Shown in pieces: positions 2,959 to 56,800 of a stretch of 64,000 bases of DNA. The translations under genes and the position numbers were made by a program. The DNA is from Parachlamydiales bacterium (GTDB lineage: Bacteria; Chlamydiota; Chlamydiia; Chlamydiales; JABDDJ01): contig JBAZCF010000002.1 of NCBI GenBank assembly GCA_041671045.1, positions 213,370-277,369 of the forward strand. Reading direction: 5' to 3'. Each line of letters starts with the position of its first letter. The first letter of the stretch is position 1. The notes below the pieces were generated by a model. That model was not told where the DNA came from, made no database searches, and was given only the letters and a program-made list of their open reading frames with translations.

Positions 2959-3294
2959 ATGGCAACACCACCCCGCATAGAACCAACACCTACTTCAAAT
3001 GCTGGATATCAACTACCTGCTTGTGTGCAAGCTATAATAAATAATACTTCAAAAAACTTTGAGACTCTTTCGCTGAAGGTAAAGAGTTATGCTACAACAG
3101 AAAATGCGCAGCTTTTTGGCGCAGGAGTTGTCAGCGGACTGGGCCTAGCGCTGCTTTTTAGCGTAAAATTAGCAGGAACAGTCGTCACTTCTAGTCCGAT
3201 TGTTTTAGGTACATTTTTAACTTTAGCCGGTTTGGGCGCTGCATTTTACAGTCTTAGCAAAAGAGTTACGCCTGCTTCAGGTGGTGGAAGCTAA
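2959..3294 (+). CDS. Small membrane protein with a bilobed hydrophobic domain (Inc-like candidate)
   Basis: A strong SD (AAAGGAGG) lies 5 nt upstream of the ATG. The 111-aa product has a polar N-terminus followed by about 50 hydrophobic residues split by a short polar turn (LFGAGVVSGLGLALLFSV-KLAGT-VVTSSPIVLGTFLTLAGLGAAFYSL). A hairpin terminator follows the gene. Confidence 0.6.
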   Translation: MATPPRIEPTPTSNAGYQLPACVQAIINNTSKNFETLSLKVKSYATTENAQLFGAGVVSGLGLALLFSVKLAGTVVTSSPIVLGTFLTLAGLGAAFYSLSKRVTPASGGGS

Positions 3295-3320
3295 GTTATC
3301 TTGATTGGATAGATGGATTA

Positions 3321-3371
3321 AGGACGAAAATTCTAGTAAAAAGTAAACTTTACTCTAATTTCGTCCTTTTT
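3321..3371. terminator. Rho-independent terminator between convergent genes (Inc-like + and recJ -)
   Basis: GGACGAAA (3321-3328) pairs with TTTCGTCC (3358-3365), followed by a T-run (TTTTTT). Confidence 0.6.
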
Positions 3372-3391
3372 TGCCTTGGATAAGAATAGTC

Positions 3392-22258: not shown

Positions 22259-25200
22259 ATGTCTTCGCCTAGATTTCAAAATCCTGTGTCTTTAAGTGCT
22301 ATCGAAGCATTACCTACCCCTCTTCGCATAGAGGAACTTCCCGACACTCCAGAACCGGAACAAGTATTCATTGTTTGTGGAGAGACTGAGGAAGATGAAC
22401 TAAGGGCTTTTGCTCGTAATTCAGGCTGTGTCGATGAGGAATATTGGCTTATCGGTCCGGTAAAAAAATTCGATCAAGATATCTTAGATATTGCTTACAT
22501 TACCCAAGCCCTGCAGAAAAAACTATTAACCCCGATAAAAAAAGGCAGTGGAACAACGACCAATGCTGAAATTTGGGAATCGCAGTATCTCAATGCTGAA
22601 GCTCGGGCTACCCCGATAACTGAATTCGCCGTGGCGGGCAGCACCGTCATCGAACTTCTGGGTCCTGATAATCGTGTTCTCATCTTAAAAGACGGCGGTG
22701 CTCAGGCATTATGTGTTCCCAAAATTCTCGAACAATTAGATCTTAAGCCTTCCGATTTTGACGGTCGAAGCATCTCTTCGACGGAACAATGGGATGAGAA
22801 GGTACGTCTTGTTGTTGATGCTATCTATATCCATGAAACTCCTGAGGAAAGAAGATCGCTCTATGCAATGAATTACGCGCTATTAAAGAAGAAAATCAAA
22901 GAGGATTTCAAGCTAGATGTCAGAGGAAAAGGCTCTGACTATACACACATTGCCTTTGAGGGTGTAGACCAGGTCAATAAGGATAAGCGTGGCCAATTTT
23001 GTTTATTTTCCTATTCGAACATACAAATAAGGGTTGTCGGTAGTTCTGTCACTAAAGCGGCTGACAAGTTACAAATAAAAATTATCTGTGAAGGAGGCGC
23101 CCACCCTGCCCAAGCCCTTATCCACAAATCATTAAAAATTACTCATACCAAGTCTCCTGAAGAGAAAGACTATCGCGGTGCTCTGGTATACAGTTCAAAT
23201 CTAGTACAGGAAAGTATCTGCCCTAATGCCACGGTTTTTTCCAAGCATCTGAAGGTATTCCAGTCCTTCTGGAAAACGTGCTTATGGAATATGCCCTATC
23301 CTGCTGAAACAGTGATCTATCTCATTGGGAATATTTCAAGTTCGCATAATAGCTCGCCTCTATTTGCTAAAGTGGGAATGTTATTAAAATTAGAATCTGA
23401 ATCGCCTGAAGAGCTGACAGAACCATTTTTACAGGTTTGGAAAAAAACTTTTATCAAATCGAAAGAGCATTTGTATGGAATTGCGAAAGATATTTGTTTG
23501 GGAAGAATTGACAGTGAAGTATCTGCAGTACATTTGAAGGCTGTATTGGGAGTATTAGGAGTACTTCATTTAGGGATGCCTTGCCATCAGAAGACGGGAG
23601 CAGGGGCAAATGTGGTATATACGGAAGTGGAGAAGAAGCCTACAGTGCGCTATTTGCTGTGTAATAATACTTACCTGCATATTCCGCTAGAATTAGAGAA
23701 GTCTATCCAAACGATAGAGGCACTATACATCAAGTGCAAGCAGGACAATGACCTAAGCAAGTTTAATGCACTATCACAGTTATTCATAGGACATTTTGAT
23801 GCTGAGAATTATTCAGGACGCGGTAAGTCATCCTTAAGCAAGTATGCGCCCCTTAAACCTGAAGAATTCGCCCTCTTACGGACTCAGCTTGAAACTTTTC
23901 TTTCTTCTGAAAATCTTTTTCTTTGCCAAATAGCATTTGCTATTACAGCCGTTTTTGCTCTGCATGAAAATACTTCAGCAGGGAAATTTTTTATAGAAAA
24001 GGCGTTCCCTTGGCTTAGTAAAGATACATTTATTCGATGCTTAATGGAGAAACTATTGTGCATGAATGCACTTCCTGCCTGGGAGAAGGAAGTGGAGGCT
24101 TTTTGTAAAAATGCAAAATGGGGATCAGCCCTTGCTGCAGCAGATAACTCAGAATTCCATTCCAAAGCTATCTCATTCGCAAGCGAAGATGAAATTGAAG
24201 AAGTGTTCAATATCCTGGTACAAACAGCACCGGAAGAAGCCGTACGATTTTTAAAATTAACCTCGAAAGACCCTGAGAAGACAGAATTGGTAAAAAAACT
24301 AGTTTCATTGTCTATCGAGAAACTTCCTCTCACCACAGCTTCTACAGATTTTCCCTTTTTTTCATCTTATTTAGATGATTTACAGCTTCTCTCATTTGTA
24401 GATCAAAAACCGGAACTCTTACACGAGGTTTTTTCACATCGCAAAAGTTATACTATAGGCTTACCGGTGCTTCTAAAACTAGCCAAGAATGCACTTCTTG
24501 TTCCTAGTATTGATAAGTTGGCGGTCATAAACAGTTTTGATATCGCCTTATTAAAAGATGAAAAACTCTGGGCCGCCTATTGTAGCGAACTGCTACATCC
24601 TATTATCTTTGAATTGCTTTCAAGCAACATTCCTCAAAAGATCCAGGAAGGGAAAAAATTAAAGAAGAGCATTTCAGAAGGAAATTCTCCCCCTCTAGAA
24701 GTTGAAAAAACTCTCATAGACTTTAGGCTATTCTGTATTGAAAACTACCTAACTGCAGGGGATCTAATTTCCGCCATAAAGGGTTTATCCAAGCTAGCTG
24801 GAATCTTGATGAATCCTACTTCCTCTGCCTGCTATGAGAGGTATTTAAAAGAAGCCATTGTACAAACATTGCACTCGGAAAATGTATTTTTACAAAGGGT
24901 GCTGCTTACGCTGATAGTAGAATTAGATGGGAAAATAAAAGAGAAGGCTATCGATTGGGTTTGGGATAGCTTAGATAAAACGTTTTTCAAAGAAACAAAG
25001 GTTAAGACATGGAGCTCAGACCACATTGCTCAAGCTCATTTTTGTGCTGAGATCGCTGTATTATGGCTGAGAAATCATCCTGAAATCCCAGATCCGGTTA
25101 TTAATTATACTTTTGTTAAAATACAGACAATCTGCGAGGCATTTGGAAAAGCGCCCCAATTTAAAAGCGAATTATGCGCAAACTTTCTGCAGGCTTTCCT

Positions 25201-28200
25201 AACACACACACAATTAGAAAATAAACCTTTAAAGCTTCATTTGGATGTGCCCAAAAAGGAAATAGTACTTAAGGTACTCTTGAAAAACCATTGGGATATT
25301 GCCGCAAGCTTGCTTATAAAGCTCACCCCCCTGAAAGACTTTAGTCCTGTGATTTCTCAGCTGGCTTTTAAACTAGCGCGTAGATGGGCGAACCTGCCTA
25401 AGGCTTCTGTGTACCTGTTGTATGCATTACAGTGGATATCTGCAGAAAATGCCCCTGCTCAATTAGGTATGAACTGTTGGCTTAAATGTGCAACTCGTTG
25501 GCTTAATGCTGCGCATAAGAATAAAGTTTCAAAAGAACATTGTGAAAGAGTCGTTCTGAGTATTTTAAAAGGAGTTGCTGCTTCAGCCAACAAAGAGGAA
25601 AAACAAATTGGATTAGCTACGTCAGTCATTGTGGGTGAAAATCTTAAGCATATCAGAGAGGTAAATCTCAAAAAGCTATCTCCGAACCATTTTGTCCCTT
25701 TCGCCGCAGCGCTGAAAAACCAACTAATAAATGGACGTAGACGGAAAGCCTTTTTTTCCTATTTAAAGTGTGTGCATATGCTAAAGGGAAATATTTTTTC
25801 TTTTCCGGCAAACTTGAAACAGTTGAATGTGGATCTAGAAAGAAGTCCGTACTCGTTTATGGTGGTTGATAGCTTTGAAAAGGCTTTGGAGGAATGTCAC
25901 AAGCCTCTTCAACTCAATGAGGTGGCCGAGAAAGCCCCCGACTATTTGAAATCATCCTCGAATGTAGAGTTTCTATTAGAGGTATTTTACTTTTCATGGC
26001 ATAGAAAGCACTTTTCCCAAGCTTTCCTATTTTTGGATCTTGTTATTGCTCTAAGTATAGCGCCAGGTTTTGCAGCTTCGAATAAGTTCAAACAGGATTT
26101 GTTTGAAGTCATCGGACTATTTGACAGCAGCCAATATAGCCATACTATCAGGCTCTTGACGCTTTTAAAAAGTTGGTTTAATCACCCTCATCTCGAGTTA
26201 ATCATCCAAGAAAATTTTGACGCAGCACTTAATGCCGGCAAAGTAGGCGAAATACAGGCGTTATTTGAACTGAAAAGTGATTCGCAGAACTTCAAGAAAT
26301 GGGTAGATCATTGTCTAGAAAACTTTACAAAAGAGAATTTTGATTTGTTAAGTAAGCAAATGCCAGCATTTGCTGAGCATGTTTCCCTTCAACACTGGAC
26401 AAAACTATGGTGTAAGCTCATCGAGAGAAAAAAAATCCAGGGGTTTGTAGAAGGTTTCATAACGTTCTCAAAGAAATTCCCTTTAGATTTAAATGAGGAT
26501 AAAATCCTAGCGGCTTATGCTCCTGCGCTTGAATATATTTTCTTCCAAAGCAAGGATAACTTTGAGAAATTTTTACAGATCCATCCTGAAGCCATAGAAC
26601 TTTCTTTTAATGAATCACTTTCTAAAAATTTACGTTTAATATTGATTGAACATGCCTTCAGAAATCCTACAGATTTCAATTTGTATTTAACAAGGCTCTG
26701 GAACCTCTATGTAATAATTCAAACGAATAAAACAACAATCATTAATTACATCGAGGATTTGTTTCATCCTGCCCTGGAATTGGGCAGCCAAGATTTTTCA
26801 AACAGCCTATTTGCTACCCTATGTTCCCATCTCAACGATGATAATGTAGGGCCGCTTCCCCACAAATGTGCACAATTACTTTCATCTATAAACAAGTGGC
26901 CCGAAAATTTCCAAAGTTCCCTTTACCGTCTTTTACAGGCATTAAATCGTTTTGTGATAGCAGACTCGACCTATCAATTGCCTGCTTTGAGATGGCTTCT
27001 ACGTTTTGAACAGTCGGAGATGTTATCTCAGGAAACCTTCTTGATACTTCATCGTTGTGTGCCAATTTGGGAAAGTCTTAGCTTGATCATAAGAGATGAG
27101 CAGACAAAAGTTTTGGCTCTCATAAATCACTGCACAAAGAAAGCGGAAAACTTCGTACCTCTGATCCAAATACTAAATCGATGTTTTAAAGAAGGGTTAC
27201 TTCCTAATGAAAATGCTCAGAGTCTTATTTTTGACCTATTGCAAAGTGCTAGTGAAAATAGCACTTATACATTTGAAGAGAAGATCACCGCCTTATCCTG
27301 TTCATCTAATGCTCTACTGCATCATCCTGAATTAGCCGATTGCTATGTTAGAAGGGGATTAGGGTGGTTGGTCAATGTATGTGAATTGAAACAGCCCTCG
27401 GCATCTTTCTGTACTTTATATGCCCTATTGTATACTTCATTTGAAAACTCCTTATGGGAGCATATTCTCTTCGAAGAAGTATTAGAAAAGTTATATGAGA
27501 AATTGAATCTCCCTGAAAATTCAGACGATGATAGGGATAAGTCTATTGAATGTATACAAGAGGTTTTTTGCTTTCACCTTGCTAGAATTAGCAGCATATC
27601 TGCTTCTGACAACAGCTGGCTAAAGCATGCCATAGAAATTTATATTATCAAATTAGTTAAACTACACGAAAAATTCAGTTTAAGAAATATTTCATCCTTT
27701 ATCAACTCGCTCTCAGGATTTAAGTTATATTCTCCTGATGAACTCAAAAAAGCTTTATCAGCCTTCCATCTTGTATTTGATCGCTTCGCCTGGAATAAAA
27801 ATAAGCTAGAGACTATAGAAGAGGATCCTGTTGATCAAGGAATAAACTATCTTGCAGATGTGATATGTCTTAGATATACGACTGAAGCTCCTATCTTCTT
27901 TGACACACTTTTTCACGGGGTCTATATCCTGGATTTATATGGAAAAAACCCTGATAAACTTTGTTCTTTCTATAAGAAAATTATATCTTCTTTCCATTCT
28001 TTAGAGCTTCTTTCCTCTTTCATCGAACACTTAACTCCACAGGGACATGTTTTTGGAAAGGGTTTTACTGAATTTAGTTGTTTAAGAGCACTTGACGTAC
28101 ATTTGAATGTTTTCGAAAAATTTAGCGATCATGTGAATTCTGTGCAGGAAATAGATGCAAAGGGGATTCTGAGTCTTTTCACTACTCTTGCAGGTTATTT

Positions 28201-31200
28201 CACTAAAATATTGAGTTTGAAATTAAGTATCACTCATCCGGAGATTGATACATCGATTTTATGGAAAAATTATTTAGCAATAACAAAACACTTTTTGGAT
28301 GTCCTTTCAGCCCTTATTAAAAGAGACACAGATTCTACCTTACGTTCTAAGGTCAGCTATGAAATCTCTGAATTATGCATCATGCCGGTACTTAGGACAA
28401 TTTCAAATAGCAATGGAATAGAGGAATCAAAGGAGCAGCTTAGAAATGTATTTGTGAGCTTATATGAGATGGGATTGTATTCAATTTTAGAAATGGAAAT
28501 TAGCACAATATTATCACCTCAGTCACATCTTTCTTGCAGGCCTTTTTTTGAATCTCCACTATCCGCACTTTTCTATTTGCCACAGTCTATGCCAGTGCAT
28601 ATTGCCAAAGCAGTTTTAACTTTCCAGGACCAGGCTTCAGCAATTACACAAGCACTGAAAAGAAATGAACCTCTGTGTGGACCGGAGCTTCCTTTTGAAC
28701 AAACCCTAAAGTTTGTAAACTACCTATTTACCTTGGCCTTAGAACGAGATAGCTTAGATGACACTAGCGCTCGAGCAGTCATTCACTATGTTCAAATATT
28801 GCTTACGAGACTGGATGCAGAACATCAATTACGTCTTATAAAAGAGATTTTTCCTTTCATTTATGAAAATAAAAACCATCTTTTCATAGCATACTCTGAA
28901 CAGCTTCTATTGGAAATATTAAGCCTTTGCTTAGGCTTGAACTCTCCTCAAAACACAATACAAGAATTATTAGGGATAATTCTTATCAATTTAGAGATCA
29001 AAAATACCGATAGGATGAGGCAATTAGAAAGTTTACTTGTAAGGGCTTTAATTCATATTTATTCCGGGGAGAAAGAATTATCTCCACACAAGTCTTTGCC
29101 CTTGGTTATAACTTCTTTTTTAGATGCTCATTGGGATTTGGAGGAATTTTCACAAAACCTATTGCTGCTCTATCTCATACCACTATTGGATCGGGAAGAA
29201 CAGCAAAGACAATGCCAGCAAGGCCTTTCTTCTGCCATAGCCGTCCGCGATCCTTTCAATGGGATGTTACTTATCGCTCGTTTTGCAGAGATGGACGTTA
29301 TTCTTCCTGAAGATCATGTCACAGCAATATTTGAAATTCTTATCTATCAGTTTTGGGCCAAAAATGTTTCCTCAGATCTATTTACTCAGGTGTTAAGAGA
29401 TATTTTTAATTCGATTGAGGTAGAGCATCACCGAAAAATATTGAATTGCATCCCTGTGGATATATGCAGGCACTATTACTATGCACTTAAGGGTCTTTCA
29501 AATGAGAACAACGCTATCAGAGATCTCTTAGCTAAATTTGAAGAATACATTATTTTAAAAGAGCTCACCGGCATTAAAGCCCTAAGAAAAACTTGTACTA
29601 ACCCTTCTAACGATGTCGCCTTAGAATATTTAGACATCCTCATTGAATGTACGGATTTCGTAGCAGAATCTACAAGTAGCACTGTTGAGCTTTTAGCAGG
29701 GTCTTTGCTGAGAGAGTTTATTACATGGAACTTTGAACCAAGAACTTTAGATAATATACTGAATTGGTTTTGTGCTGATTCACCGAATTTTGTCTTGGAA
29801 CTATTCGATGAAGATTCTTTGAATATCCTTGTGAAACTTATTAAGCAGAGGATTGCGAAATTACATCACGATAATGAAATGGATATTGATGATTTCATCA
29901 CCGTAATAAATGAGAAATGGCAGACCCCCCAGAGCTTTTTATTTATTGGCGATTCAGCCTTAGTATCCTCTCTCTCTGTTATTGCGCAAGAATTAATCGT
30001 TCATGGATTTGTTAAAGAAGCATTCAGTATATGTAGAGACTTGATTGAAGCGTTTGATGAGTTGTCCCCGGTATTAATGAACAACCTTCTTTTTAATTTA
30101 TCGGCAAAGGCAGTGGAAATTTATTCCACACCTGATCGGGGGCTTGAATTTTTAACAATAATTGCTTTTGTTGAAGATTTTCATCCCCAAAATCTGAGGG
30201 AAATCATTGATTTTCTTTGGAGTAGGGCCAGTATTTCTACTGATTGTTCGAATGCATGCATGATGGGGATAGCTTTTCAATCCGATGAAGTATTTAGAAA
30301 TCAGTTTCCAGCTCAAGAATATGTGAAAAGGTTTATACTTGAATATTCTCAGAACGAAGATATGCTTTGCGATGCGGCTGAGTTGATCGAGCTATATGAG
30401 ATTTCTGATGAGAAAATTTGGCTCCAACTTTTCGGATTTGGGGCTTTGGCAAAGAAAAAATCAAATATCGAAGCTTTAAGGAGTTTGATTCTTTTTGCCG
30501 AAAATTCCTCCCACATTTCGCTTCCACCCTATACTTATGCAGACTGTCTTATTGCTCTGCTGTTTGCGTCTAGCGAAGCTAAATACCCATTGAAATGGAG
30601 CTGTACGTATTTAGAATATGCAACGAAATTCTGCAAACTTGACATTGACATTTCACGGAAACAACATCTTCTGGTCTATTTACTTTATAATTCCACTTTT
30701 GCAGTGGAGACTCCTTCAAACAATCTTGTGCAATTTTTCGCGGTGAGGAATTCAATTCATGAACTTAAATTGCATGGCGGGGCAGGAGACTTAGCAACTG
30801 TAGACAAGTTTTTAATGAGACAAGCTCTTTCACCGGGCCATAATCAAGAGGTTCTTACCTCAGCTTTTTCATTTTTGAACCTAAAACAAATGGAAGGAGA
30901 GAATGCTGACAATATCATCAACTGGTACATTCTACTGATTATACGTTTAAAAGAAGTTTTAAAAGAGGAAGAACAACTCTCACCGGCATTGTCAACAGCC
31001 TATCGATTTCTAGTAGGATATTTAAAACGCCATATGTCTCTTTCAAAAGCCATATCTTTAGCCCACCAATTTGCAAAACTTCTTCGTGCCGACTTTAATG
31101 ACGATGTGGTTATTTTCGTTACGCATGCTGCGCAATGTGGTGCAACAAAAGAGACCTTTACACCTGATATAAGACAGCAATTCTTCGAGATGATGTGGTC

Positions 31201-38498: not shown

Positions 38499-38749
38499 GG
38501 GGCTTTGCCCCCTAGAACCCCCACCAAAGGGCAAAGCCCTTTGGAAACCGCGTTCTCCCCTTCGGGATTTACACGTTAGATTTGGCTCGGAAGCATTAAT
38601 TAATCTCTACATCAGAAATGCAAAGTAAAATGCTTCTATTAATAAAAAAAGAAAAATAGAGGTGAGATAGTCAGACTCTTGTCAATCCAATCGCGGATTC
38701 CCAAGGCTGCTAGGCCTTGGGTGGGGGTGCAGGGGGCGAAGCCCCCTGC
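38496..38749. repeat. MITE-like element A: two diverged 57-58-bp double-hairpin arms in inverted orientation around a 139-bp AT-rich core
   Basis: The left arm (38496-38552) is TAGGGGGCTTTGCCCCCTAGAACCCCCACCAAAGGGCAAAGCCCTTTGGAAACCGCG. The right arm (38692-38749) is CGCGGATTCCCAAGGCTGCTAGGCCTTGGGTGGGGGTGCAGGGGGCGAAGCCCCCTGC. The element lies between the convergent MCP and GDH genes. Confidence 0.85.
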
Positions 38750-41700
38750 TCAGGTTCGCAGTTTTCGTGGAGGATGACGGGGAGGACGTCGACGATGGAG
38801 GGCAGCCAGGAGAGGCCGCGTTTGTAGACGGTGTCGGCGGAGAGGAAGCAGGCGATGATGGCTTTCTTGTGGTTGGGGGGTATTTGTTCTAGGAGGGCAT
38901 GGAGGTGTTTGGTGCGAAGGAGGGGTAGACAGTAGTTGAGGAAGCAGCGGATGAGGGGGTCTTCGGGGTTAGAGGGTAGGTCTATGGAGTCGAGGTATTC
39001 AAGGATTTGGTCGAAGAAGTGGTTGATACGCGCAGAGATTTCATCAGAAATGTCGGTGAGTCTGCCTCCGTTCTCATTGAAGGTGGTGAGGAGGAGGTTA
39101 GCTTCGAGACCGGCGACGAGGCGTAGGCGATGAAGGATTTCCTCTACGAGGGCGGGTTTGTTTTCGAGGAAGCCTTTATCGCCTAGGGTTAGGCCGCTGA
39201 GGACTTCGAAGGAGGAGCAGATGACGCCCGTTTTATTTGCCGAGCTGTCTTTGATGATAAGGACGCCGAGGTCTTCTAGGAAGTAGCGGGCATCGTCATC
39301 CAGGTATAAGTTGGCGCCTTCGACGATGGCTTTAGCTGTCGGTTTTCCGGAAGGGTCGAGAAATTCTGAGACGTTCGCACCGTTGAGGGTTTTGGGGCGG
39401 CCGCCGGCGGGTATGAAGACGTCGGTGGAGATCACATGGACGTTACGTCGCCATAGATGGTTCATATCGTTGCCGCTATGCCATTCCTCTACGACTTTCC
39501 CATTAATTTTTTTCCAGCAGAGAGTTTGTTGTGAGAATGTATTTTTTGAGCGGCTAGTTTCCCTATCAACCAAGAAGCCTTCTTCATGCAATTCTTCGGG
39601 TGGGTAATGGCGGATGGGTTTACCTTGTTTGAAAAGGTCGACGAGGATATCTAAGTTTAGGCCTTTAGGATCATAAATTGTTCCGGACGCGTCGGTTAAA
39701 GCAAGGATTTTGGCTGTTTTAGGGTAGTAGCGTTGTAGGTTGCATATCTCGTTGCCAGCGACGTCGCCGTCGGGACCGCCGGAGATTTTAACGGTGAAAA
39801 CATTTTTGTAAGGATCTATTCCTAGCTGTTTCAGGACGTATTCGAGGTAGACATTCAGACCGAGAGAGGTAACGCCATATTCTTTGTGGTTAATCCCTAG
39901 AATAGGTTTTCCGGAGATAAAAGCGCTGCCGGGCTTGTAGTTGTGTTTCTTACTATATTCGGCTATCCATTCTATCATGCTGTCGTGCATATTTTCGTCA
40001 GGACCTAGATAGAGGTATTCCGGTTTTTGCCAGAAGTCCAATACATGTTTAGCTTTAAGTTTTCCATTGGCTTCGCAGTTGACAATAGTGATGAGAGCTT
40101 CCACAAAAGTGCGTTGGGCATGGTGGAGATATTCTAATTTTTGTTCCTTCCTGTAGTTGTCCACTTTTGCATCGATATCCTTTTTATTTAGGCCTGAAGC
40201 GCCCAGCTCTCTAGCAAGGATATCGGTTTCTAAATCCAGCTGTTCGTAAGGCTTAACAAAAATAACGGCTTTGGCACCACCTTCGGGGATATCTTTATTC
40301 TTTTTGTCTTGTGTATAGGCAAGGTTATAGCATTCGGTGAAAACCCTATTGATCTCGACGAGCATACGTTCTTTCTGCTCGGGATAGATCGTCCGGACGC
40401 CGCCGCGCGATAGGTCTTTGAAGCGGATATGGAAAGAAAAGGTGTACATCCCTTTCACGAAGATGATGGCGAAGGGAAGAACCGGGAAAAAGGCAGGGCG
40501 GTTGAAGGGGATTTCTTCGAGATAGAGGGGGTCTAATCTAAAGCTGAGGGCTGTGAAATTGGTGCGGTAAAAATTAGTTTTCAGTGTGAAATTGACGAAG
40601 TTGATACCCTGAGTGAGGACATTTTTTCTGCGGATATCGTTATCTTCATGTCCTGTGTCAATCTTAGAGATGTCGTTGACGATCCTTTTCTTCAATTTGA
40701 GGTAGGTGTCAATATTTGTGTTCCACGGATCAAATTTACTTCTGAAAGCTTCGCAGATATGTGCTGTAAGTTCGGGATGCCGGCATAGAGCTTCTACAAT
40801 ATTGTCTAGGGTGTATAAATTCTGGTCTATGTGGACCAGAGCCTGGTGGATAAAGGTGACGATAGTCCTAACTAGGTTGCCTTCATTCCCACTAACATAC
40901 CCTGTGGAAACAAGCATTTTTTCTACAGGGTCGCCATCCTCAAAATATTTGATAGTGACGAACTCTCTTAAGAAATCATGGATATTCTCAATTTCCCAGG
41001 CAGGTTTGCCATTGCTGCCGTGCAGCCCTAGAGCCATGACAAGGATGCCATCTTTACTGAAGGAGTTAACATAGGAGGCATTAACGCGCTTTATCACAAG
41101 TTGGTGCCGATGGATAACACCGGCCATACGGTATAAGAAATTATTTTTGGGACAGTTGCGCCAGGCTAGGACTATCTGCATAGAGACAGAGCTTTTCTCT
41201 TGCCAGTCTTCATTATAACGCACCTCATATTGGCAGCTATCGCGTGTCGTAGCGCGATGGAACATATCGATGGCAAGGACTAGCCTTTCGGTGGAAAGGG
41301 AACGCAGGAAGCGGAGGCTAAAAGAATTGAATATTTGCTCGAATTCGCCATCAGTAATGCTGGAATTGCGTACGTTTACTAAGGAACGCAGATGCTCCTT
41401 AGTTTCGGGTGTATAAGGGTTGGTTTGGACTTCAGCAGAGGACTCAATAAAGTAGACAGCTGCGATACGAAGATTCGCTTTAATGCCGGGAACAGGAGGA
41501 GGGGCTTTAGAGATGTAAGACTGATAGTTTCGAATGCCGTACATAGAAAAGTTTTTGAGAATTTTCAAGTCTGCATCGGTGCTGTCCTGGCACATGACAA
41601 TAGCAAAGTGGCCAAACTGGATTAGGGAAAAGTAGTCCTGTAAGTGAAATCCCATCAGTGTTCTGGCGACAACGATAAGATATTCGCGCCCGATTTCTTC

Positions 41701-41826
41701 ATAGAGGATGGGCGGCATATTCTTTTCTAGCCAGGTGTAAAACTCTTGGAAGCGTTCGCTTTCCTTGTGGATAGTCGCATTGAGGTCATTATTGATTGAA
41801 GGCAGGTCTTTTGTGACGTTTTCCAT
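38710..41826 (-). CDS. NAD-specific glutamate dehydrogenase, large (~115 kDa, GDH2-like) type
   Basis: The product is 1038 aa. The catalytic region IPEGGAKAVIF and the dinucleotide-binding region FTVKISGGPDGDVAGNEI resemble fungal/protist GDH2 as I recall it. The last 12 codons and the stop lie inside repeat arm A2. Confidence 0.8.
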   Translation of the reverse strand: MENVTKDLPSINNDLNATIHKESERFQEFYTWLEKNMPPILYEEIGREYLIVVARTLMGFHLQDYFSLIQFGHFAIVMCQDSTDADLKILKNFSMYGIRNYQSYISKAPPPVPGIKANLRIAAVYFIESSAEVQTNPYTPETKEHLRSLVNVRNSSITDGEFEQIFNSFSLRFLRSLSTERLVLAIDMFHRATTRDSCQYEVRYNEDWQEKSSVSMQIVLAWRNCPKNNFLYRMAGVIHRHQLVIKRVNASYVNSFSKDGILVMALGLHGSNGKPAWEIENIHDFLREFVTIKYFEDGDPVEKMLVSTGYVSGNEGNLVRTIVTFIHQALVHIDQNLYTLDNIVEALCRHPELTAHICEAFRSKFDPWNTNIDTYLKLKKRIVNDISKIDTGHEDNDIRRKNVLTQGINFVNFTLKTNFYRTNFTALSFRLDPLYLEEIPFNRPAFFPVLPFAIIFVKGMYTFSFHIRFKDLSRGGVRTIYPEQKERMLVEINRVFTECYNLAYTQDKKNKDIPEGGAKAVIFVKPYEQLDLETDILARELGASGLNKKDIDAKVDNYRKEQKLEYLHHAQRTFVEALITIVNCEANGKLKAKHVLDFWQKPEYLYLGPDENMHDSMIEWIAEYSKKHNYKPGSAFISGKPILGINHKEYGVTSLGLNVYLEYVLKQLGIDPYKNVFTVKISGGPDGDVAGNEICNLQRYYPKTAKILALTDASGTIYDPKGLNLDILVDLFKQGKPIRHYPPEELHEEGFLVDRETSRSKNTFSQQTLCWKKINGKVVEEWHSGNDMNHLWRRNVHVISTDVFIPAGGRPKTLNGANVSEFLDPSGKPTAKAIVEGANLYLDDDARYFLEDLGVLIIKDSSANKTGVICSSFEVLSGLTLGDKGFLENKPALVEEILHRLRLVAGLEANLLLTTFNENGGRLTDISDEISARINHFFDQILEYLDSIDLPSNPEDPLIRCFLNYCLPLLRTKHLHALLEQIPPNHKKAIIACFLSADTVYKRGLSWLPSIVDVLPVILHENCEPEQGASPPAPPPKA

Positions 41827-47177: not shown

Positions 47178-48755
47178 ATGACCACAGATTTAAATACTTC
47201 TGCGGGTGGCAGCCAGTACAATCCAGACGACAGCTTTCAATTTAATCCCTCCACTGACGTAGACAATACAGGAACTGTACAAGCTCCGGCGGCTCCCCCC
47301 AGCGGCCCGGCCGCTCCGCAAGGCCCCGTTGACACTTTAGAACAAAGCGACGCTGTTGCTGAAGGCAGTAGCCCGGAAGCAGCCGCCCCTAAATTAGATC
47401 AACCTGAAGTTCAACAAGCGATCTTGTCCAGCAGCGATGCATTGAAATTTGCTCTGATGAGCAATTTCATGAATATCTTTTCCAGCGGCAACAATCAAAA
47501 TATTCAAATGGATGAGTCTTCTCTGCATAAAGCTTCGGGAATGTATGATTTTAGTAATCTTCAAGCGATGGATATGGATTTCAATAAAGCTATCAATGAC
47601 ATCATTTCGGATAGCTGGAAAAAATTTAATGAGGTGAATAAAGAGTTAGCCCAACGCGATCAAGACTACCTAAAATCCAATACTAAGGCTTACTTAGATT
47701 ATATTGGTTCAGCTCAATATGACGCTAAAAAACAAGCTATAGAAGATTCTGATTCCGATATTTATAAGAAAAACCAAGGCTTAGCCCAATTCGAGGCTTT
47801 TTATCTTTCCCTACCGCCAAACGCTAAACAAGATTTAGTCACCTCTGTTCAAAATAATAAGGATATCCCTGACACTGTCACGAATAATTTGCTTTCTTCC
47901 AATTTAGCAGTCTTTGGAAATGCCTATCAAGAGGCGACAAAAGACGATTTACAGGCTAATAATGCACAGTTTGTCGTCACTGCAGCTATGCTCAATGCAG
48001 GGGCAATCTTAGCGCATCCTGTGAATTTGGATAATATTTCCAGTGATCAGATAAGCACCAAACTATTGTCAGATCAGGTGGTGAATGCAAATTCCAATAC
48101 GACAAACAATGCGATGCCTGTCGTGGGCTTTGATGCGAATACCTTGACAGCTGTGGCATATTTAAGTGCTATAATGGTTACTTCACCATTAATATTAAGC
48201 GCATTTCAAAACGTTGCTGCAGCTAAGGCAGAAGGCAAACCTGCGGAAGAGGCTAAAGATGTGGATTTTGCGAAGAAATACGCGCAGAATATCTCTTCAT
48301 TCGTCAATTCTAAGGGATTTGAAGCAGCTGTCATTGCTGTCATTACACAACGTTCAGGTGAGAGCGGACAGGCTGACAATGATCAGAAACAGGATGTCGT
48401 GTCACGTTTACGTGTGATAATGTTAGCCACGGCTCTAGTTTTACTGAATAAGGCATTTAGCGAGGGTATTGGAGGTAAGGAGGTCCGGGAGCATATTGAA
48501 CATCCCGAAACTTTGATCGACCCTACCTCTAATAAAGCTAAAAACCCTGTGATAGGGGATATAGAATATTCCCTTGCAAGAGACATCAATAGTTATTTGC
48601 CCAAAGATGCCTCAGCGAGAGAGAAACTGTTAAGTGATATTGAAATCTATTTTGACAGCAGCCCTTCCAAAGAAGAACTTGTGGAAAATAACACTGCGAT
48701 CAAAGGAGCATTCACTGAGTTTACTCCTAATGGAAGCACGGAGGTGCAAGGTTAG
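47178..48755 (+). CDS. Hypothetical protein (525 aa) with a disordered Pro/Ala-rich N-terminus and central hydrophobic segments
   Basis: The N-terminus is Ser/Thr/Asn-rich and then proline-rich (APAAPPSGPAAPQGP). Hydrophobic stretches include LTAVAYLSAIMVTSPLILSAFQNVAAA and LRVIMLATALVLLNKAF. I recognise no family. Confidence 0.75.
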   Translation: MTTDLNTSAGGSQYNPDDSFQFNPSTDVDNTGTVQAPAAPPSGPAAPQGPVDTLEQSDAVAEGSSPEAAAPKLDQPEVQQAILSSSDALKFALMSNFMNIFSSGNNQNIQMDESSLHKASGMYDFSNLQAMDMDFNKAINDIISDSWKKFNEVNKELAQRDQDYLKSNTKAYLDYIGSAQYDAKKQAIEDSDSDIYKKNQGLAQFEAFYLSLPPNAKQDLVTSVQNNKDIPDTVTNNLLSSNLAVFGNAYQEATKDDLQANNAQFVVTAAMLNAGAILAHPVNLDNISSDQISTKLLSDQVVNANSNTTNNAMPVVGFDANTLTAVAYLSAIMVTSPLILSAFQNVAAAKAEGKPAEEAKDVDFAKKYAQNISSFVNSKGFEAAVIAVITQRSGESGQADNDQKQDVVSRLRVIMLATALVLLNKAFSEGIGGKEVREHIEHPETLIDPTSNKAKNPVIGDIEYSLARDINSYLPKDASAREKLLSDIEIYFDSSPSKEELVENNTAIKGAFTEFTPNGSTEVQG

Positions 48756-50029
48756 GAATAATAGCACTCGATAAGCTTTGTCATTGCAGCTTGGTCGCTG
48801 CAGGCGATGAGTTCGCGTGCAGAATGCATGGATAATTGTGGAATGCCGATGTCAACTGTTGGCATTCCTGTTAAATTCGCGTGGATGGGTCCAATCGTTG
48901 ATCCTGAAGAAAGATCCCCTCTTCCAACCAATTCCTGAAAAGGTATTTTATTTTTTCCGCATAGCGCTTTAATGTATCCTGCTGTAGCAGCTGTGGAAGC
49001 ATAACGTTGCTGTGCGCTGTATTTAAGGGTGATCCCTTGCCCTAATTTAACTTTATGCTGGGGTTCATGCTTATCAGCATAGTTGGGATGGACGCCATGT
49101 CCTAAGTCTACCGATACGCAGAGGGAGGAAGAGACAATGCGTAAGTAATCGGCGCGAGTACCATTCAGTGCATAAATCAGACGTTCTACTGTTTCAGAGA
49201 AGAATGGGGAAGAAGCTCCCTGTGCAGTTGCAGAGCCTATCTCTTCATTGTCCCAAAAGGCGCAAAGCTTAAGCGTGTTTTCGGCAGGGGTTGAAGACGC
49301 TAAAAAAGCCTCTAAAATGGAGTGGACGCTGCATAGACTGTCGATACGATAAGCGGCGAGCATCTCTTTTTTTGGTCCTACAAATGCGGGGGGCTCTATA
49401 GGATACAAGAATAAGTCGCTGCTAAGGATATCCTTCACTCCTAAGAGCTTACTTAAATAGAGTCCTGCCTCTTTATCATCTTTACAATCGAGTTTTGCTA
49501 GAGCAGCCAAATGATTTTGTTTATGTAAAACTAGCCCTTGGGTATTGACGTCGCGATCAAGGTGGATAGCCAGCTGGGGGATGACGACAGGCGAGTCTGC
49601 GATATTGACTAGAGTCTCCACCAGACTATTGTTTTTACCACGTGAGAAAATTCTTCCTGCAATGCCTAAATCGCGGTTAAGCCAGGAGTTTAATAACGGA
49701 CCCCCGTAGATATCGACACCTAGCATCAGCATGCCTTCCTTGACAAAGGGTGCATTAGGCTTAAGCTTAAAAGCAGGGCTGTCAGTATGCGAGGCGGCAA
49801 CTTTAGCTGAATGGATGGCTTTGCGCGGAATAACAAAGGCAATCAGCGAGGACCCGTCGCGGACAACATAGTATCCTTTGCCGTGCTTTAGTTTCCATGT
49901 CTCGCTTTCATGCAGAGGCGTAAATCCACGCTTATCCAGCTGCTGACGCATATTAGCTACAGCGTGCCAAGCGGTAGGAGAGCCTTGTAGGAATGTGATC
50001 AGTTTTTGCATGTCTAGTAGATGCGGCAT
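48752..50029 (-). CDS. M18-family aspartyl aminopeptidase
   Basis: The motifs SHTDSPAFKLKP, WDNEEIGS, SVDLGHGVHPNY and QLSMHSARE are present. Its stop codon overlaps the stop of the convergent 525-aa gene (TTAG, 48752-48755). Confidence 0.85.
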   Translation of the reverse strand: MPHLLDMQKLITFLQGSPTAWHAVANMRQQLDKRGFTPLHESETWKLKHGKGYYVVRDGSSLIAFVIPRKAIHSAKVAASHTDSPAFKLKPNAPFVKEGMLMLGVDIYGGPLLNSWLNRDLGIAGRIFSRGKNNSLVETLVNIADSPVVIPQLAIHLDRDVNTQGLVLHKQNHLAALAKLDCKDDKEAGLYLSKLLGVKDILSSDLFLYPIEPPAFVGPKKEMLAAYRIDSLCSVHSILEAFLASSTPAENTLKLCAFWDNEEIGSATAQGASSPFFSETVERLIYALNGTRADYLRIVSSSLCVSVDLGHGVHPNYADKHEPQHKVKLGQGITLKYSAQQRYASTAATAGYIKALCGKNKIPFQELVGRGDLSSGSTIGPIHANLTGMPTVDIGIPQLSMHSARELIACSDQAAMTKLIECYYS

Positions 50030-52695: not shown

Positions 52696-52869
52696 ATGAA
52701 AAATAACTTTTTCCCCTACCTCGCCACCGCCGCCTTCACTTCTTTCATCACTATCCTCATCGTTGTCGTGGGCATCTCCTACTCCCGCCGCCACGGCCGC
52801 ACTCCCATCGATATGGCCCAAATGCAACAACTCCGCGAAAATGCCTCCAACGAAGCTGCAATGAAATGA
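52696..52869 (+). CDS. Unannotated 57-aa single-TM protein, translationally coupled to the downstream DsbD_2-like gene
   Basis: My own translation is MKNNFFPYLATAAFTSFITILIVVVGISYSRRHGRTPIDMAQMQQLRENASNEAAMK. GGAGA lies 5 nt upstream of the ATG. The stop overlaps the next start as ATGA (52866-52869). It has the same C-ending codon style as its neighbour. It falls below the 60-aa cut-off of the ORF track. Confidence 0.55.
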   Translation: MKNNFFPYLATAAFTSFITILIVVVGISYSRRHGRTPIDMAQMQQLRENASNEAAMK

Positions 52870-53528
52870 CCCTCCTTCTCTCTATGCTCCCTATATATAT
52901 TCTAGGAAACCTCCACTGCATCGGCATGTGCGGCCCTCTCGTTATGATGATCGGTAAACACAACTACAGAAACTGGTACTTCGCAGGGCGCATCACCTCC
53001 TTCACTCTCATCGCCACACTCGCCGCCTCACTAGGCAGCGTCCTGACTATCTTCCTTAACCAATACAACCTAGGCGCCCTCCTATCCCTCCTCTTCGGCA
53101 TCGCCTTCATCTCCTACGGCATCCTCAAACTTTTTAACTTCTCACTCCATATCCCCGGACCCAACCTAGGAAAATACATAGCACCCCTCATCCTCAAAGA
53201 CTCTCCCAAATACTCTTTCTCCTTCGGACTCTCCACAGTTCTCCTCCCCTGCGGACAATCCCTCCTCGTCTTCTCCGCCTGCGCCCTCTCCGGCGACACC
53301 CTCACCGGCTTCATCAACGGCGCCGCCTTCTCCCTCCTCACCACTCCCTCACTCCTCCTCGCTATGCACGCCCACAAACTCCTTTCCTTCGGAAAGAAAT
53401 ACTACAACCAACTCCTAGCCCTAGCTTCCATCATCGCCGGCTCCATCGCTCTCCTCCGCTCCCTCGCTGACCTTAACCTCATCCCACACCTCACACTCTC
53501 CCAATCCCTCCACATCACCATCTTCTAG
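52866..53528 (+). CDS. Polytopic membrane protein with HCxxMCGP and LLPCG motifs (DsbD_2 / TauE-SafE-like)
   Basis: GNLHCIGMCGPLV and VLLPCGQSLL lie within about 6 predicted TM helices. This motif pair is characteristic of the DsbD_2-type family as I recall it. Confidence 0.75.
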   Translation: MTLLLSMLPIYILGNLHCIGMCGPLVMMIGKHNYRNWYFAGRITSFTLIATLAASLGSVLTIFLNQYNLGALLSLLFGIAFISYGILKLFNFSLHIPGPNLGKYIAPLILKDSPKYSFSFGLSTVLLPCGQSLLVFSACALSGDTLTGFINGAAFSLLTTPSLLLAMHAHKLLSFGKKYYNQLLALASIIAGSIALLRSLADLNLIPHLTLSQSLHITIF

Positions 53529-53862
53529 CAGGGGGCGCTGCCCCCTGCACCCCCGCCAAAAGACTGCGTCCTTTGGAATCCGCGCGTTGAGTTGTTAGGC
53601 TTGGAACTTTGTGACCATTAATTAATTTGTGGGATATTAATAGAGGTTAAATTAGAGATTTAATTAAAAATTAAAAATTAAAAATTAAAAATTAAAAATT
53701 AAAAATTAAAAATTAAAAATTAAAAATTAAAAATTTGGATAACTCTGCAATAATATTTCTGAATTATTTGTTGTGAAAAAGAACTATGAGCCAGCGATAG
53801 CTACTCGCGGATTCCAAAGGACGCAGTCTTTTGGCGGGGGTGCAGGGGGCAGCGCCCCCTGC
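53528..53862. repeat. MITE-like element B: perfect 57-bp inverted arms around a 221-bp AT-rich core containing a heptamer array
   Basis: 53528-53584 is the exact reverse complement of 53806-53862; I checked this base by base. The sequence is (G)CAGGGGGCGCTGCCCCCTGCACCCCCGCCAAAAGACTGCGTCCTTTGGAATCCGCG. The arms abut the TAG stops of the two convergent genes. Confidence 0.9.
53664..53733. repeat. Tandem heptanucleotide repeat (TTAAAAA) x10, perfect
   Basis: I counted the repeat directly. TT dinucleotides fall at 53664, 53671, 53678 and so on up to 53727, with strict 7-bp spacing. Confidence 0.95.
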
Positions 53863-53865
53863 CTG

Positions 53866-56800
53866 CTATGCGTTGACGGCGTAGGTGTTAGAGAACTCCA
53901 TGGAGAGTAGTTTAGAGACGCCTTTTTCTTGCATGGAGACGCCGTAGAGGCGATCGGCGATGGCCATGGTGCGTTTGTTGTGAGTGATGATGATGAACTG
54001 GCAGCGGTCGATGAATTGTTTGACGACGTTGAGGAAGCGTTCGACGTTGGAGTCGTCTAGGGGGGCGTCGATTTCGTCTAGGATGCAGTAAGGTGAGGGT
54101 TTGACTTCGAAGATGGCGAAGAGTAGGGCCATGGCTGTGAGGCATTTTTCGCCGCCGGAGAGGAGGCTGATGGAGCGCATTTGTTTGCCTGGGGGTTTAG
54201 CGGAGATTTCGATACCGGCTTCGAGTAGGTCATCGTTGTCGACGAATTGGAGGTCGGCTTCGCCGCCATTGAATAGGATGGCGAAGTTTTTTTGGAAGTT
54301 GGTGCGTATGGCGTTGAAAGTTTCTTCGAAGAGTTTGCGGGATTGGGAGTCGAGTTCTTGGATGACTTTAGCAAGTTCATTTTTAGAGAGTTTTAGGTCA
54401 TTGATTTGAGAGGAGAGGAAGTCGCTGCGTTGTTTATCTTGGGAGCATTCCTCGATGGCTAGCATGTTGATATTCTGAGTGGAGTCTAGTTCTTGTTTGA
54501 GCGTTTTGAGTTGTTTTTCTGTTTGAGGAATATCCTCGAGGAGAGGGGAGTTGGGAGTGAATTCGTCGTTATATTTTTCTTTGTAGGCGGAGGTGAGAGT
54601 TTCTTGCAGGGTGGAGAGTTGGGAGGCTTGGACTTGGAGTTTGTGTTTATCGTTTTCAATAGATTTCAGGTTTTGTTCATTCGAGAGCAGTTTTTTCTCG
54701 AGATTTTCGGCTTCTTGTTTAGCGTCAGCAGTATTTTTTTCTAGAGTTTGGCAAGAGGTTTCCAGTTTGAGGACGAGTTTTTGCACAGTTTCAATCTGGT
54801 CGGTGGTGTCGGTATTATTTTCGCAGAGGGAGTCTAGAGCTTCTTTGGCTTGAGAGATTTCGAGGTGAAGTTTTTTTATGTTTTGGCTGATCTCGTGTTT
54901 TTTTAGGGAGAGGACTTCGAGAGAGTGTTGTTGTTGCCTTTCTTTGGCGTAGGCTTCTTGCCAGCATTTGCGTGCGTTTTCAAAGTTGGCTTGTTCTTTT
55001 TTTACGATGAGGAAGAGTTCATCGAGGAGAGTGGATTGATGTTGGGAGGTAGTTTCAGAGAGTTTAAGTTGCTTTTCTAGTGAAGCGACGGAAGAAGCTA
55101 GGTCTTCGCAGCGTAGTGAGCTTTCGACAATAGCTTCGCGAGTTTTATTTTGTTCGGCTTTTAGGATATTGAATTCATCTTCGATACGTTTGGCGTCGGC
55201 TTGGTGTCTGAGGAGTGCGTAGTTGACTTCGACGAGTTTCATTTCGGTGGTGCGCATTTCCTTGTCGAGGGAGGTGCGTTTGATTTGTGTTTCGGAGAGC
55301 CTTTCTTGGTGGAGGCGCTGTTGTTGGCTGTGTTGGATTTTGCGGTGTTCAAGGGAGTCGATCTGCTCTTGCAGGGAGGTGATTTCGGCTTCGCGCATGA
55401 AAGAGTTGCCTTCGCGGCGCGGTTCGTAGAAGAGGACGCGTTTGTGGTCGATGAGAGCACCTTCGTTGGACCAGGCGGGAGTATGGAGGGAGAGGGCTTC
55501 ATCGAGGGTATTGACGATTTTAAGGTTGTCCAAAAAATGGTGGGTGAGGTTACTGTGTGGGGCGTCTTCAGCGCAGAAGAGGGTTACATCGGTCAGTTGG
55601 TGTTTTTTTATGTAGGCGAGGGTAAGGTTAAGGTCTTCTTTTGTGGCGACGACAAGAGTTTGTCCGTAAGGCTGCAGAGCGGCGGCGGCGGCTCTCTCTT
55701 GTCCCGGTGGAGGGGAGATAAGCTCGTAGAGGGGGGTGATTTTACCGTAGAGAGTATTCTTGGGTTGTGCGCTATCTTCCAGAAGACGTTTGCATCCTGG
55801 GGAGAAGCTGTCGAGGGCGGAGCGCAGTTCTTGCAAAGTGTGCAGGCGGGTTTGGAGTGTTGCGCTTTCTTTGACAAGTGTTTCACCGTCGGCCTGGCCG
55901 GTAGCTAGGGAGTCTTTAATTTCATTGTAGAGGTTGTCGAGGGTGTCGAGTTGTCCTTTGTAGGTGTCGATAGTGTCAGAAAGCTTTTTTAGTTCATCGG
56001 CACGGATTTTCTGTTTATCTTGAGTTTCCTTTTTCTGTTGCTCTAGGTTGGAGACTTTATCTTCGAGTGGGGGGAGGCGTTCATTTAAGGCTTCGATACG
56101 AGCTTGGAGTTGTTTCCATTCGGCTTGTTTAGAGCTGTGGCTTTGAGTTAGGGCTAAGCGGCTCTTTTGAGATTCGTCTTGGCTGCGGCGGGTGTCTTCC
56201 AGTTCTTGGGATTTTTCGTCGAAGCGGACTTGTGCTTCATCGAGGGTGCTGCGGAGCTCTGTCAGGCTGGAGCGCAGTTCGCCATGCGCATCATTTTGTT
56301 CACCTTGTTCTTCGGTATTTTTTTCATTTTGGACAGCTAGCGCCTGCAGGTCTTGTCCCCAGCGGGCAATTTGGTGTTGGAGTTCTTCACGCCGTTTGGC
56401 CATATGGCTGCGGTCGCGTAGGAAGAGGTCGCGTTCGTTCCGTTTGGCGTACATCTCGGCAGAGCGTTCCTTCCAAGCTTGTTCGCAGTCGTGGGCTTTA
56501 ATACGGGCTTGGTGAAGTTCTTGGCGTGCGGAGGAGATTTCAGCAGTGAGTTTTTCCAGTCTTTCTGATAGGGATGTTTCCTCAGAAGCAAGCTGTTGGA
56601 GGCGTTGTTTTCCTGTGGCCCATTTTGTTGTCATCAGTTGTTTTTCGAGCAGTTCAAAGAGGGCTTTCCGTTCCTTATAGGCAATGGCGCTGGCAGCTTG
56701 TTGTTCCAAAACGGCGATGCGTTGAGACACCTCTCTAAGGATATCTTCGACACGGGAGAGGTTAAGGTCGGTTTGTTCCAGTTTACGGAGGGCTTCCCTT

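Follow-up and report, generated by a model that had tools for sequence, protein, structure and literature searches.

Inverted double-hairpin arms at the 3' ends of convergent genes in a Parachlamydiales genome and related arms in Acetobacteraceae

Arms and the gene ends they adjoin

The window, by which we mean the whole 64,000-nucleotide stretch of Parachlamydiales MAG sequence that was analysed, holds a dense set of about 29 genes, with 5.4% of the DNA intergenic. Three of its six convergent gene pairs carry, in the spacer between the two genes, GC-rich repeat arms of ~60 nt with two hairpins each. Pattern and profile searches found exactly five arms in the window and no chance matches, and the sequence profile found no sixth arm in the window or in the ~8 kb past its right end (Logan contig), a census of ~72 kb in total. 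The GC content of the arms is 58-71%, as compared to 20-34% in the surrounding spacers. All five arms lie in spacers of convergent genes, named here by their Pfam matches, and in each the outer hairpin faces the upstream gene, giving a single orientation. Elsewhere in the window, two giant ORFs that adjoin each other on one strand (11863-22113 and 22259-32653; 3416 and 3464 aa) had no Pfam match at E <= 1e-4. Another convergent pair (47178-48755, plus strand; 48752-50029, minus strand) overlaps by 4 nt at TTAG (48752-48755), which reads, depending on the strand, as TAG or TAA; overlapping convergent stops of this kind are a possible pre-insertion configuration for elements with palindromic targets.

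In the reading direction of its upstream gene, each arm begins with an outer hairpin of the form (G/C)CAGGGGGC-nnn-GCCCCCTG(C/G), followed by a linker ACCCC(C/T)RCC, an inner hairpin and the motif AA(T/A)CCGCG. The sequence of the inner-hairpin stem varies by copy while its pairing is kept. As RNA, the arms fold with free energies of -27 to -35 kcal/mol.

The first pair, A1 and A2, separates the gene for an MCP-domain protein (36687-38498, plus strand) from that for a 1038-aa NAD-glutamate dehydrogenase (GDH; 38710-41826, minus strand). Arm A1 (38494-38552, plus strand) consists of the outer hairpin tCTAGGGGGC-TTT-GCCCCCTAGa (38494-38516), the linker ACCCCCAC, an inner hairpin (38524-38544) and the motif AAACCGCG (38545-38552), and has a dG of -34.4 kcal/mol and a z of -5.5. 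Arm A2 (38691-38749, minus strand; dG -35.4 kcal/mol, z -4.3) has its outer hairpin at 38749-38729, its inner hairpin, with a 6-nt loop CTAGCA, at 38721-38700, and the motif AATCCGCGA at 38699-38691. The core between them (38553-38690) is AT-rich, with 34% GC.

The second pair lies between the genes for a DsbD_2/TauE-like membrane protein (52866-53528, plus strand) and SMC (53866-57321, minus strand). Arm B1 (53528-53587, plus strand) has an outer hairpin at 53528-53548, an inner hairpin at 53556-53576 and AATCCGCG at 53577-53584, and arm B2 (53803-53862, minus strand) has the corresponding parts at 53862-53842 and 53834-53814, with AATCCGCGA at 53813-53805. Their z values are -2.2 and -1.5, and their inner hairpin contains an A-C mismatch on the sense strand whose antisense counterpart would be a G-U pair. 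The AT-rich core (53588-53802, 20% GC) includes a perfect 7-nt microsatellite, AAAAATT/TAAAAAT, of ~11 copies at about 53662-53735. The fifth arm, C (60580-60638, minus strand; z -4.1), is solitary. It shares its spacer with a seryl-tRNA synthetase gene on the far side (59139-60419, plus strand) and meets the gene for an OEP-family outer-membrane efflux factor (OMF; 60609-62099, minus strand). Its outer hairpin is at 60637-60617, its linker is ACCCCTGAC, its inner hairpin lies at about 60608-60590 and its motif AATCCGCGA at 60588-60580. A second, unrelated structured element (60459-60575) fills the rest of the SerRS-OMF spacer beside arm C; it has a long stem closing two internal hairpins (dG -58 kcal/mol, z -7.5), and a short partial look-alike (GCGACAAGTC ... 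CCTATACTARGATAAG) lies in a different convergent spacer, at 32700-32750, immediately ahead of the Hsp70 stop codon.

With their cores, the pairs span 256 nt (element A, 38494-38749) and 335 nt (element B, 53528-53862), and arm C corresponds to half an element. B1 and B2 form a 60-nt inverted repeat that is 98% complementary, and A1 is 80% identical to the reverse complement of A2, while arms of different pairs are 73-81% identical. That likeness is greater within than between pairs argues that a pair and its core behave as one unit. No significant homology was found between core A and core B, or between either core and the spacers of relatives, and the cores may belong to the element or be native spacer.

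Two of the five arms encode the end of a protein. The 3' end of the GDH gene reads GAA CCT GAG up to the arm and, from the arm edge on, CAG GGG GCT TCG CCC CCT GCA CCC CCA CCC AAG GCC TAG. An earlier note on this DNA had claimed that arm A2 supplies the last 12 GDH codons, QGASPPAPPPKA, together with the TAG (38748-38710), and that this stop (38712-38710) lies in the inner-hairpin loop; sequence, ORF list and fold agree with it on each point. The same holds, from sequence and ORF list, for its statement that the solo arm encodes the last ~8 codons and the stop of OMF: the gene ends GCC GCC AGG GGA CTC TGT CCC CTG GAC CCC TGA, in which the outer hairpin of arm C encodes (A)RGLCPLDP and the TGA (60611-60609) falls between the two hairpins. 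The C-terminal peptides predicted from these captured tails end in HENCEPEQGASPPAPPPKA and ETQAEAARGLCPLDP.

The remaining three genes end, as had been stated, in TAG at the edge of an arm or a few nt outside it. The TAG of the MCP gene (38496-38498) lies within the A1 stem, cTAGGGGGC; the DsbD_2 gene ends TTC TAG CAGGGGGC, its stop (53526-53528) having its G in common with B1; and SMC ends GCA TAG CAG GCAGGGGGC, with the stop (53868-53866) 3 nt outside B2. All three stops that abut arms are thus TAG, as compared to 29% among the remaining genes of the window. Direct reading of B1 and the sequence after it indicated that the arm consensus is without an in-frame stop in every sense frame, and the GDH and OMF stops occupy copy-specific positions, namely, for GDH, the CTAGCA loop of A2, which is enlarged, and, for OMF, C's ACCCCTGAC linker. 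B1 (53526-53531) and B2 (53863-53868) both have the hexamer TAGCAG at their outer junction, and A2 has it once more in its unusually large inner-hairpin loop (38700-38721), with the TAG serving as the GDH stop; this recurrence may reflect chance or a selected small insertion.

Arms are placed at gene ends more often than chance would give. In a placement simulation, the probability that an arm edge falls between -41 and +5 nt of a same-sense stop was 0.011 for uniform placement and 0.16 for tolerated placement that spares genes. The probability of the association with stops was 1e-4 when the five arms were treated as independent and 4e-3 when only three independent events were counted, and three of the five arm edges lie within 4 nt of a stop (p = 2e-4). 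Because TA is abundant in AT-rich spacers, a preference for TA alone does not explain this tight fit.

C-termini compared with orthologues

The arms are absent from the orthologous GDH, MCP, OMF and DsbD_2 loci of relatives (54-87% protein identity), and the alignment of GDH and OMF with arm-less orthologues that the earlier note had proposed found none with an element-encoded tail. The closest GDH orthologue (87% identical), at a locus without an arm, ends in QENTEPE followed by TPKKTPKR, as compared to HENCEPE followed by QGASPPAPPPKA in the window. The conserved core of the protein extends to SIVDVLPVLL and is followed by variable tails, which in other close relatives are similarly EPEK/PEK-basic. 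At the DNA level, the relative reads GAA CCG GAA ACC CCT AAA and continues to a TAG, whereas the window enters the arm directly after GAA CCT GAG. Since homology stops exactly at the arm edge, a native tail of eight residues has been replaced by one of 12. The GAG at this junction had been taken as the outer-edge counterpart of a stop triplet; we rejected the idea that it is a mutated stop carried by the element, as it aligns with the Glu codon of the orthologue, in which EPE is conserved, and is a native codon.

For OMF, orthologues of 85% and 81% identity without an arm downstream end in SKPECDCK and VSTCEI, respectively, while the protein of the window ends in PPCETQAEAA followed by RGLCPLDP. 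The conserved core ends in GGGWV(L/I)DAD and the tails beyond it vary, so the breakpoint is less sharply defined than in GDH. It is plausible from these comparisons that the OMF tail was replaced or extended.

A different outcome was found at two other genes. The MCP protein of a relative ends AKGDF-TAA and that of the window AKGDF-TAG(GGGGC), and all DsbD_2 orthologues examined end at the position of HITIF in the window, so that both native C-termini are intact. In a 74%-identical relative, the DsbD_2 gene ends TTC TAA gcc, as compared to TTC TAG CAGGGGGC here. In both genes the TAA of relatives corresponds to a TAG whose G is the first base of the arm, which places the junction inside the stop codon, at TA/G. 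The end of SMC is uninformative, because tails differ among its orthologues.

These comparisons divide two broader proposals of the earlier note. That the terminus of the element carries or targets a stop is borne out insofar as the arm's G completes a host TA at MCP and DsbD_2, but the consensus of the arms lacks a stop. That insertions trimmed or replaced native C-termini is, on sequence comparison, supported for GDH and plausible for OMF; it is not general, since MCP and DsbD_2 have kept theirs.

Class of the repeats and their relatives in other bacteria

The arms combine features of several classes of repeats. Like REPs, they are short stem-loop palindromes that lie mostly outside genes, the exceptions being the MCP stop within A1 and the stretches shared with the GDH and OMF ends. 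As in REPINs, two inverted units form a larger hairpin (A1/A2 and B1/B2), and as in MITEs, there are 60-nt TIRs, small size, no coding capacity and AT-rich cores. The conserved GTAG/CGTC tag is absent from the arms, whose outer flanks are cTAG, GAG, TAG, CAG and GCC and whose antisense flank is GGGT; we therefore file them as REP/MITE-like and not as members of the two REP super-families. No transposase of any kind was found among the 29 ORFs of the window, and no autonomous IS with matching TIRs in the window or the related loci examined. RAYT genes are typically single-copy. A tblastn search with seven queries (Di Nocera supplement) of 444 kb of DNA, including a minor part of the genome, yielded no RAYT or TIRYT homologue. 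TA lies on either side of element B, while element A has TA at one end and TC at the opposite end, and arm C has none; no unambiguous target-site duplication was found, the spacers of relatives being not alignable with those of the window.

In consensus scans of the three arm-bearing loci, no hairpin-plus-T-run of a Rho-independent terminator coincided with an arm hairpin; one weak candidate was reported on the other strand, at arm C's outer edge (60636-60648). ACCCCC comes after the outer hairpin and AATCCGCGA after the inner one, and because a T-run is absent after both, the arms are not canonical terminators. Two arm-free convergent spacers (3294-3392 and 32653-32752) contain classic hairpin-plus-T-run terminators. 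Against 4227 Rfam models at the gathering threshold, the arms matched none in the window or in 17 related loci. The best sub-threshold matches were to RF02937 (Clostridiales-2), with 19.5 and 17.4 bits as compared to a gathering score of 58.6, at 53828-53889 (plus strand) and 53503-53562 (minus strand), on the antisense strand of the outer hairpin and linker. This antisense portion (GGGGGUGCAGGGGG...CCCCCUGC) resembles the 5' part of the model, but the rest of the model is unmatched, and the copies in Clostridia and Acetobacteraceae also fall below threshold.

Several of these properties have precedents. One REP survey (Di Nocera et al. 2013, PMC3733652) describes REPs as lying mainly between unidirectional and convergent ORFs, in the convergent case <20 bp from both 3' ends, states that REP termini often give the flanking ORF its TAG stop, and places about 10% of intragenic repeats at ORF ends. 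The arms resemble REPs, BIMEs and REPINs (PMC3733652; Bertels and Rainey 2011, PMC3116915) in being short GC-rich palindromes, often in inverted pairs, with a preference for convergent ORFs. They differ in being double hairpins of ~60 nt rather than single palindromes of 20-40 nt, in having cores of 135-215 nt, longer than typical REPIN spacers, and in belonging to a family that spans phyla, whereas REP-RAYT systems are reported to be mostly vertically inherited. TIRtrons, the elements of TIRYT tyrosine transposases, are described in PMC3733652 as having long TIRs, of which some are 'double palindromic' and some share a GGGG-containing motif, and as forming moderately abundant families of singles, dimers or clusters, all of which recall the arms. 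The TIRtron motif as given there, GGGGWSAS, is matched by arm C and its relatives (GGGGACAG) but by neither A nor B, and no TIRYT gene adjoins any arm examined.

A parallel for altered proteins comes from Coxiella burnetii, another intracellular bacterium, in which QMITE1 and QMITE2 overlap functional genes exclusively at their 3' ends, by 1-50 bp, changing C-terminal composition with little alteration of length; in one strain, a MITE supplies 33 C-terminal residues of EnhC and its stop context (PMC5896051). QMITEs are likewise non-coding MITEs that affect gene 3' ends, but their sequence is unrelated, they have direct repeats as well as TIRs, and no TA/G stop junction has been described for them. 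Rickettsia palindromic elements are also palindromic and non-autonomous and become parts of ORFs, but they insert in frame inside genes and not at stops. TA is the insertion target of the Correia elements of Neisseria and of IS630-type elements, and for IS630 it is the TA within CTAG. The CTA/G junctions at MCP and DsbD_2 would presumably fit a TA- or CTAG-targeting transposase, for example of the IS630 type, although neither an IS630-like transposase nor a clean TA duplication was demonstrated here. Since both the provision of stops by REPs and the remodelling of 3' ends by MITEs have been published, the phenomenon is known. The arm family itself is absent from Rfam and from the literature searched, in which the arm hairpin sequences were not found in print and no such repeats were described in Chlamydiae. 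The less ordinary points are only the spread across phyla and the TA/G junctions.

Public genome and metagenome collections were scanned with a 22-base structural pattern. The arm architecture was also found in Acetobacteraceae-type genomes (Acidocella, Rhodovastum and Falsiroseomonas) and in GC-rich peat contigs, and a profile found no arms in related Parachlamydiales loci. The Acetobacteraceae-type copies are inverted arm pairs with the outer hairpins outward, forming near-perfect palindromes of ~200 nt with termini AAG(T/C)AAGG and differentiated left and right arms. A profile built from the five window arms only detected the second arms of the Acetobacteraceae pairs, which the 22-base pattern had not picked, with E values of 1e-11 to 1e-7. 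Window and Acetobacteraceae arms are 71-83% identical, as high as among the window arms, and three subtypes are common to both phyla: a CTTT loop with ACCCCCAC, a GCT loop with ACCCCCGC, and GGGGAC/GTCCCC with ACCCCTG. The 30-aa peptide encoded by an arm, as a query against 1.84 billion representatives, returned nothing at E <= 0.001; the Acetobacteraceae-type element had no blastn match among plasmids, and a scan of viral contigs found none.

In the Acetobacteraceae-type genomes, the element terminus coincides with the stop of real genes, namely rplS in Acidocella and Rhodovastum and a decarboxylase gene; the stop of a gamma-glutamyltransferase-like gene is 8 nt from an element and that of another gene 33 nt. 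At rplS the element directly follows the TAA stop in both genera (L016 4293-4491 and L031 3895-3967), which suggests that an element of this family has been kept long-term at the rplS end across genera. Some copies in GC-rich genomes adjoin gene starts. Related arms in two Clostridia MAGs lie in the sense orientation 20-26 nt downstream of ORF stops. These form direct tandem arrays (L014 7542-7996 and L011 5994-6230; period 139, 3.3 copies, 95% matches) within mosaics of other hairpin repeats, differing from the inverted pairs seen elsewhere. On metagenome contigs L039 (1-340) and L043 (1-310), the first ~40 nt recur as the reverse complement after a palindromic element, a fold-back that looks like an assembly artefact due to the palindrome.

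Origin of the arms at gene ends

We consider it probable, at roughly 0.6, that the arms are either TIRs or REP-like half-sites, belonging to a small MITE/REPIN-type element without coding capacity that this Parachlamydiales lineage has in common with Acetobacteraceae, and that the protein tails are by-products. Two inverted arms around a core would constitute one element and arm C half of one. The element was probably acquired horizontally, and its copies would have been retained where they are least harmful, in the spacers of convergent genes, with the outer end joined to host DNA at the stop codon or a few codons before it. Where the junction fell within the stop (TA/G), the first G of the arm would have remade a TAG and left the protein unchanged, as in MCP, DsbD_2 and probably SMC. 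Where it fell upstream, after Glu-1026 in GDH or near the end of OMF, the native tail would have been lost and the ORF would run into the hairpin to the first in-frame stop, gaining a short Pro/Ala/Gly-rich tail. Stop codons are scarce in the GC-rich hairpin, so that an ORF deprived of its own stop continues for 8-12 codons. Such an element would presumably be mobile and may prefer TA or stop codons, and a stable hairpin at a stop could also, if REPs are a guide, act on the RNA, by protecting its 3' end or by interfering with termination. In relatives, 100-400 nt and even extra genes lie between the flanking genes, while here both element termini touch stops, so that elements A and B are not explained by a single simple insertion. 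The arms may have been inserted separately at each gene end, or insertion may have been accompanied by deletion.

A host origin of their position would account for several of the same observations. The arms could be 3'-end RNA modules selected by the host, stabilising mRNA or modulating termination or translation, with the capture of C-termini a side effect of close recruitment. All five point in a single orientation to their upstream gene and are very stable as RNA, the convergent spacers that bear them lack a canonical terminator at the arms while arm-free ones have obvious terminators, and the cross-phylum sequence conservation is unusual for REPs. The retention downstream of rplS in two Acetobacteraceae genera and the sense-oriented Clostridia arms 20-26 nt past ORF stops point the same way. 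We take this explanation seriously as a rival but regard it as rather unlikely, as a U-tract follows neither hairpin, every Rfam family remained below threshold, part of the sense orientation follows automatically from the palindromic, inverted-pair layout, and the B1/B2 inner hairpin carries its A-C mismatch on the sense strand; relatives, moreover, do without arms at the same genes, and some copies in GC-rich genomes lie beside gene starts. A bolder form of the element reading is that the arms belong to a module of Chlamydiota, Acetobacteraceae and Clostridia whose placement depends on specific recognition of translation stops, by its insertion machinery or by a conserved host factor, with integration at the TA of a stop codon and regeneration of the stop by the module's own first purine. 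We hold this to be doubtful; if it were true, the arms would represent a genuine stop-codon-targeting mobile element or 3'-end module and not merely a tolerated repeat.

At the other extreme, there may have been no targeting at all, the elements having landed in short, tolerant convergent spacers, or grown there by local rearrangement, until they filled them, so that the TAG junctions and tail captures are coincidence plus small deletions. In favour of this, all arms are confined to convergent spacers, at three of the six convergent pairs of the window, the genome is tightly packed (5.4% intergenic), and convergent genes can overlap by 4 nt (TTAG, 48752-48755); differences in synteny indicate that the loci have been rearranged, and the significance of the association is only about 4e-3 if three events were independent. 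But three of five edges within 4 nt of a stop (p = 2e-4), two independent TAA-to-TA/G junctions exactly at a native stop, the same abutment at unrelated Acetobacteraceae loci, and a solo arm that lies on one side of a 190-nt spacer and yet overlaps the OMF end make coincidence improbable. The contrast between arms of 58-71% GC and spacers of 20-34%, together with their 71-83% identity to Acetobacteraceae elements, might also be taken to mean that GC-rich fragments of a co-occurring alphaproteobacterium had been joined chimerically into the Parachlamydiales MAG during assembly or binning, and palindromic copies did produce fold-back artefacts at the ends of contigs L039 and L043. Continuous chlamydial sequence flanks every arm, ORFs read through two of them, and the five copies differ from one another. 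We rejected such a chimera, for which we see hardly any chance, as independently assembled Logan contigs match the GDH-A2-core-A1 and OMF-C junctions base for base.

With the arms read as parts of a small non-coding element, the GDH locus provides an orthologue-controlled case in which a small palindromic repeat rewrites the C-terminus of a conserved enzyme of 1038 aa, and the MCP and DsbD_2 genes indicate that such a repeat can also enter a stop codon and leave the protein unaltered. For annotation, this means that tails and TAG stops of this kind are repeat-derived and are not conserved features of the proteins. The recurrent TA/G junctions offer a concrete and testable hypothesis of insertion-site choice. 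Finally, double-hairpin subtypes that can be recognised as the same are present both in GC-rich Acetobacteraceae and in a chlamydial symbiont, which suggests that a non-coding element has spread horizontally.
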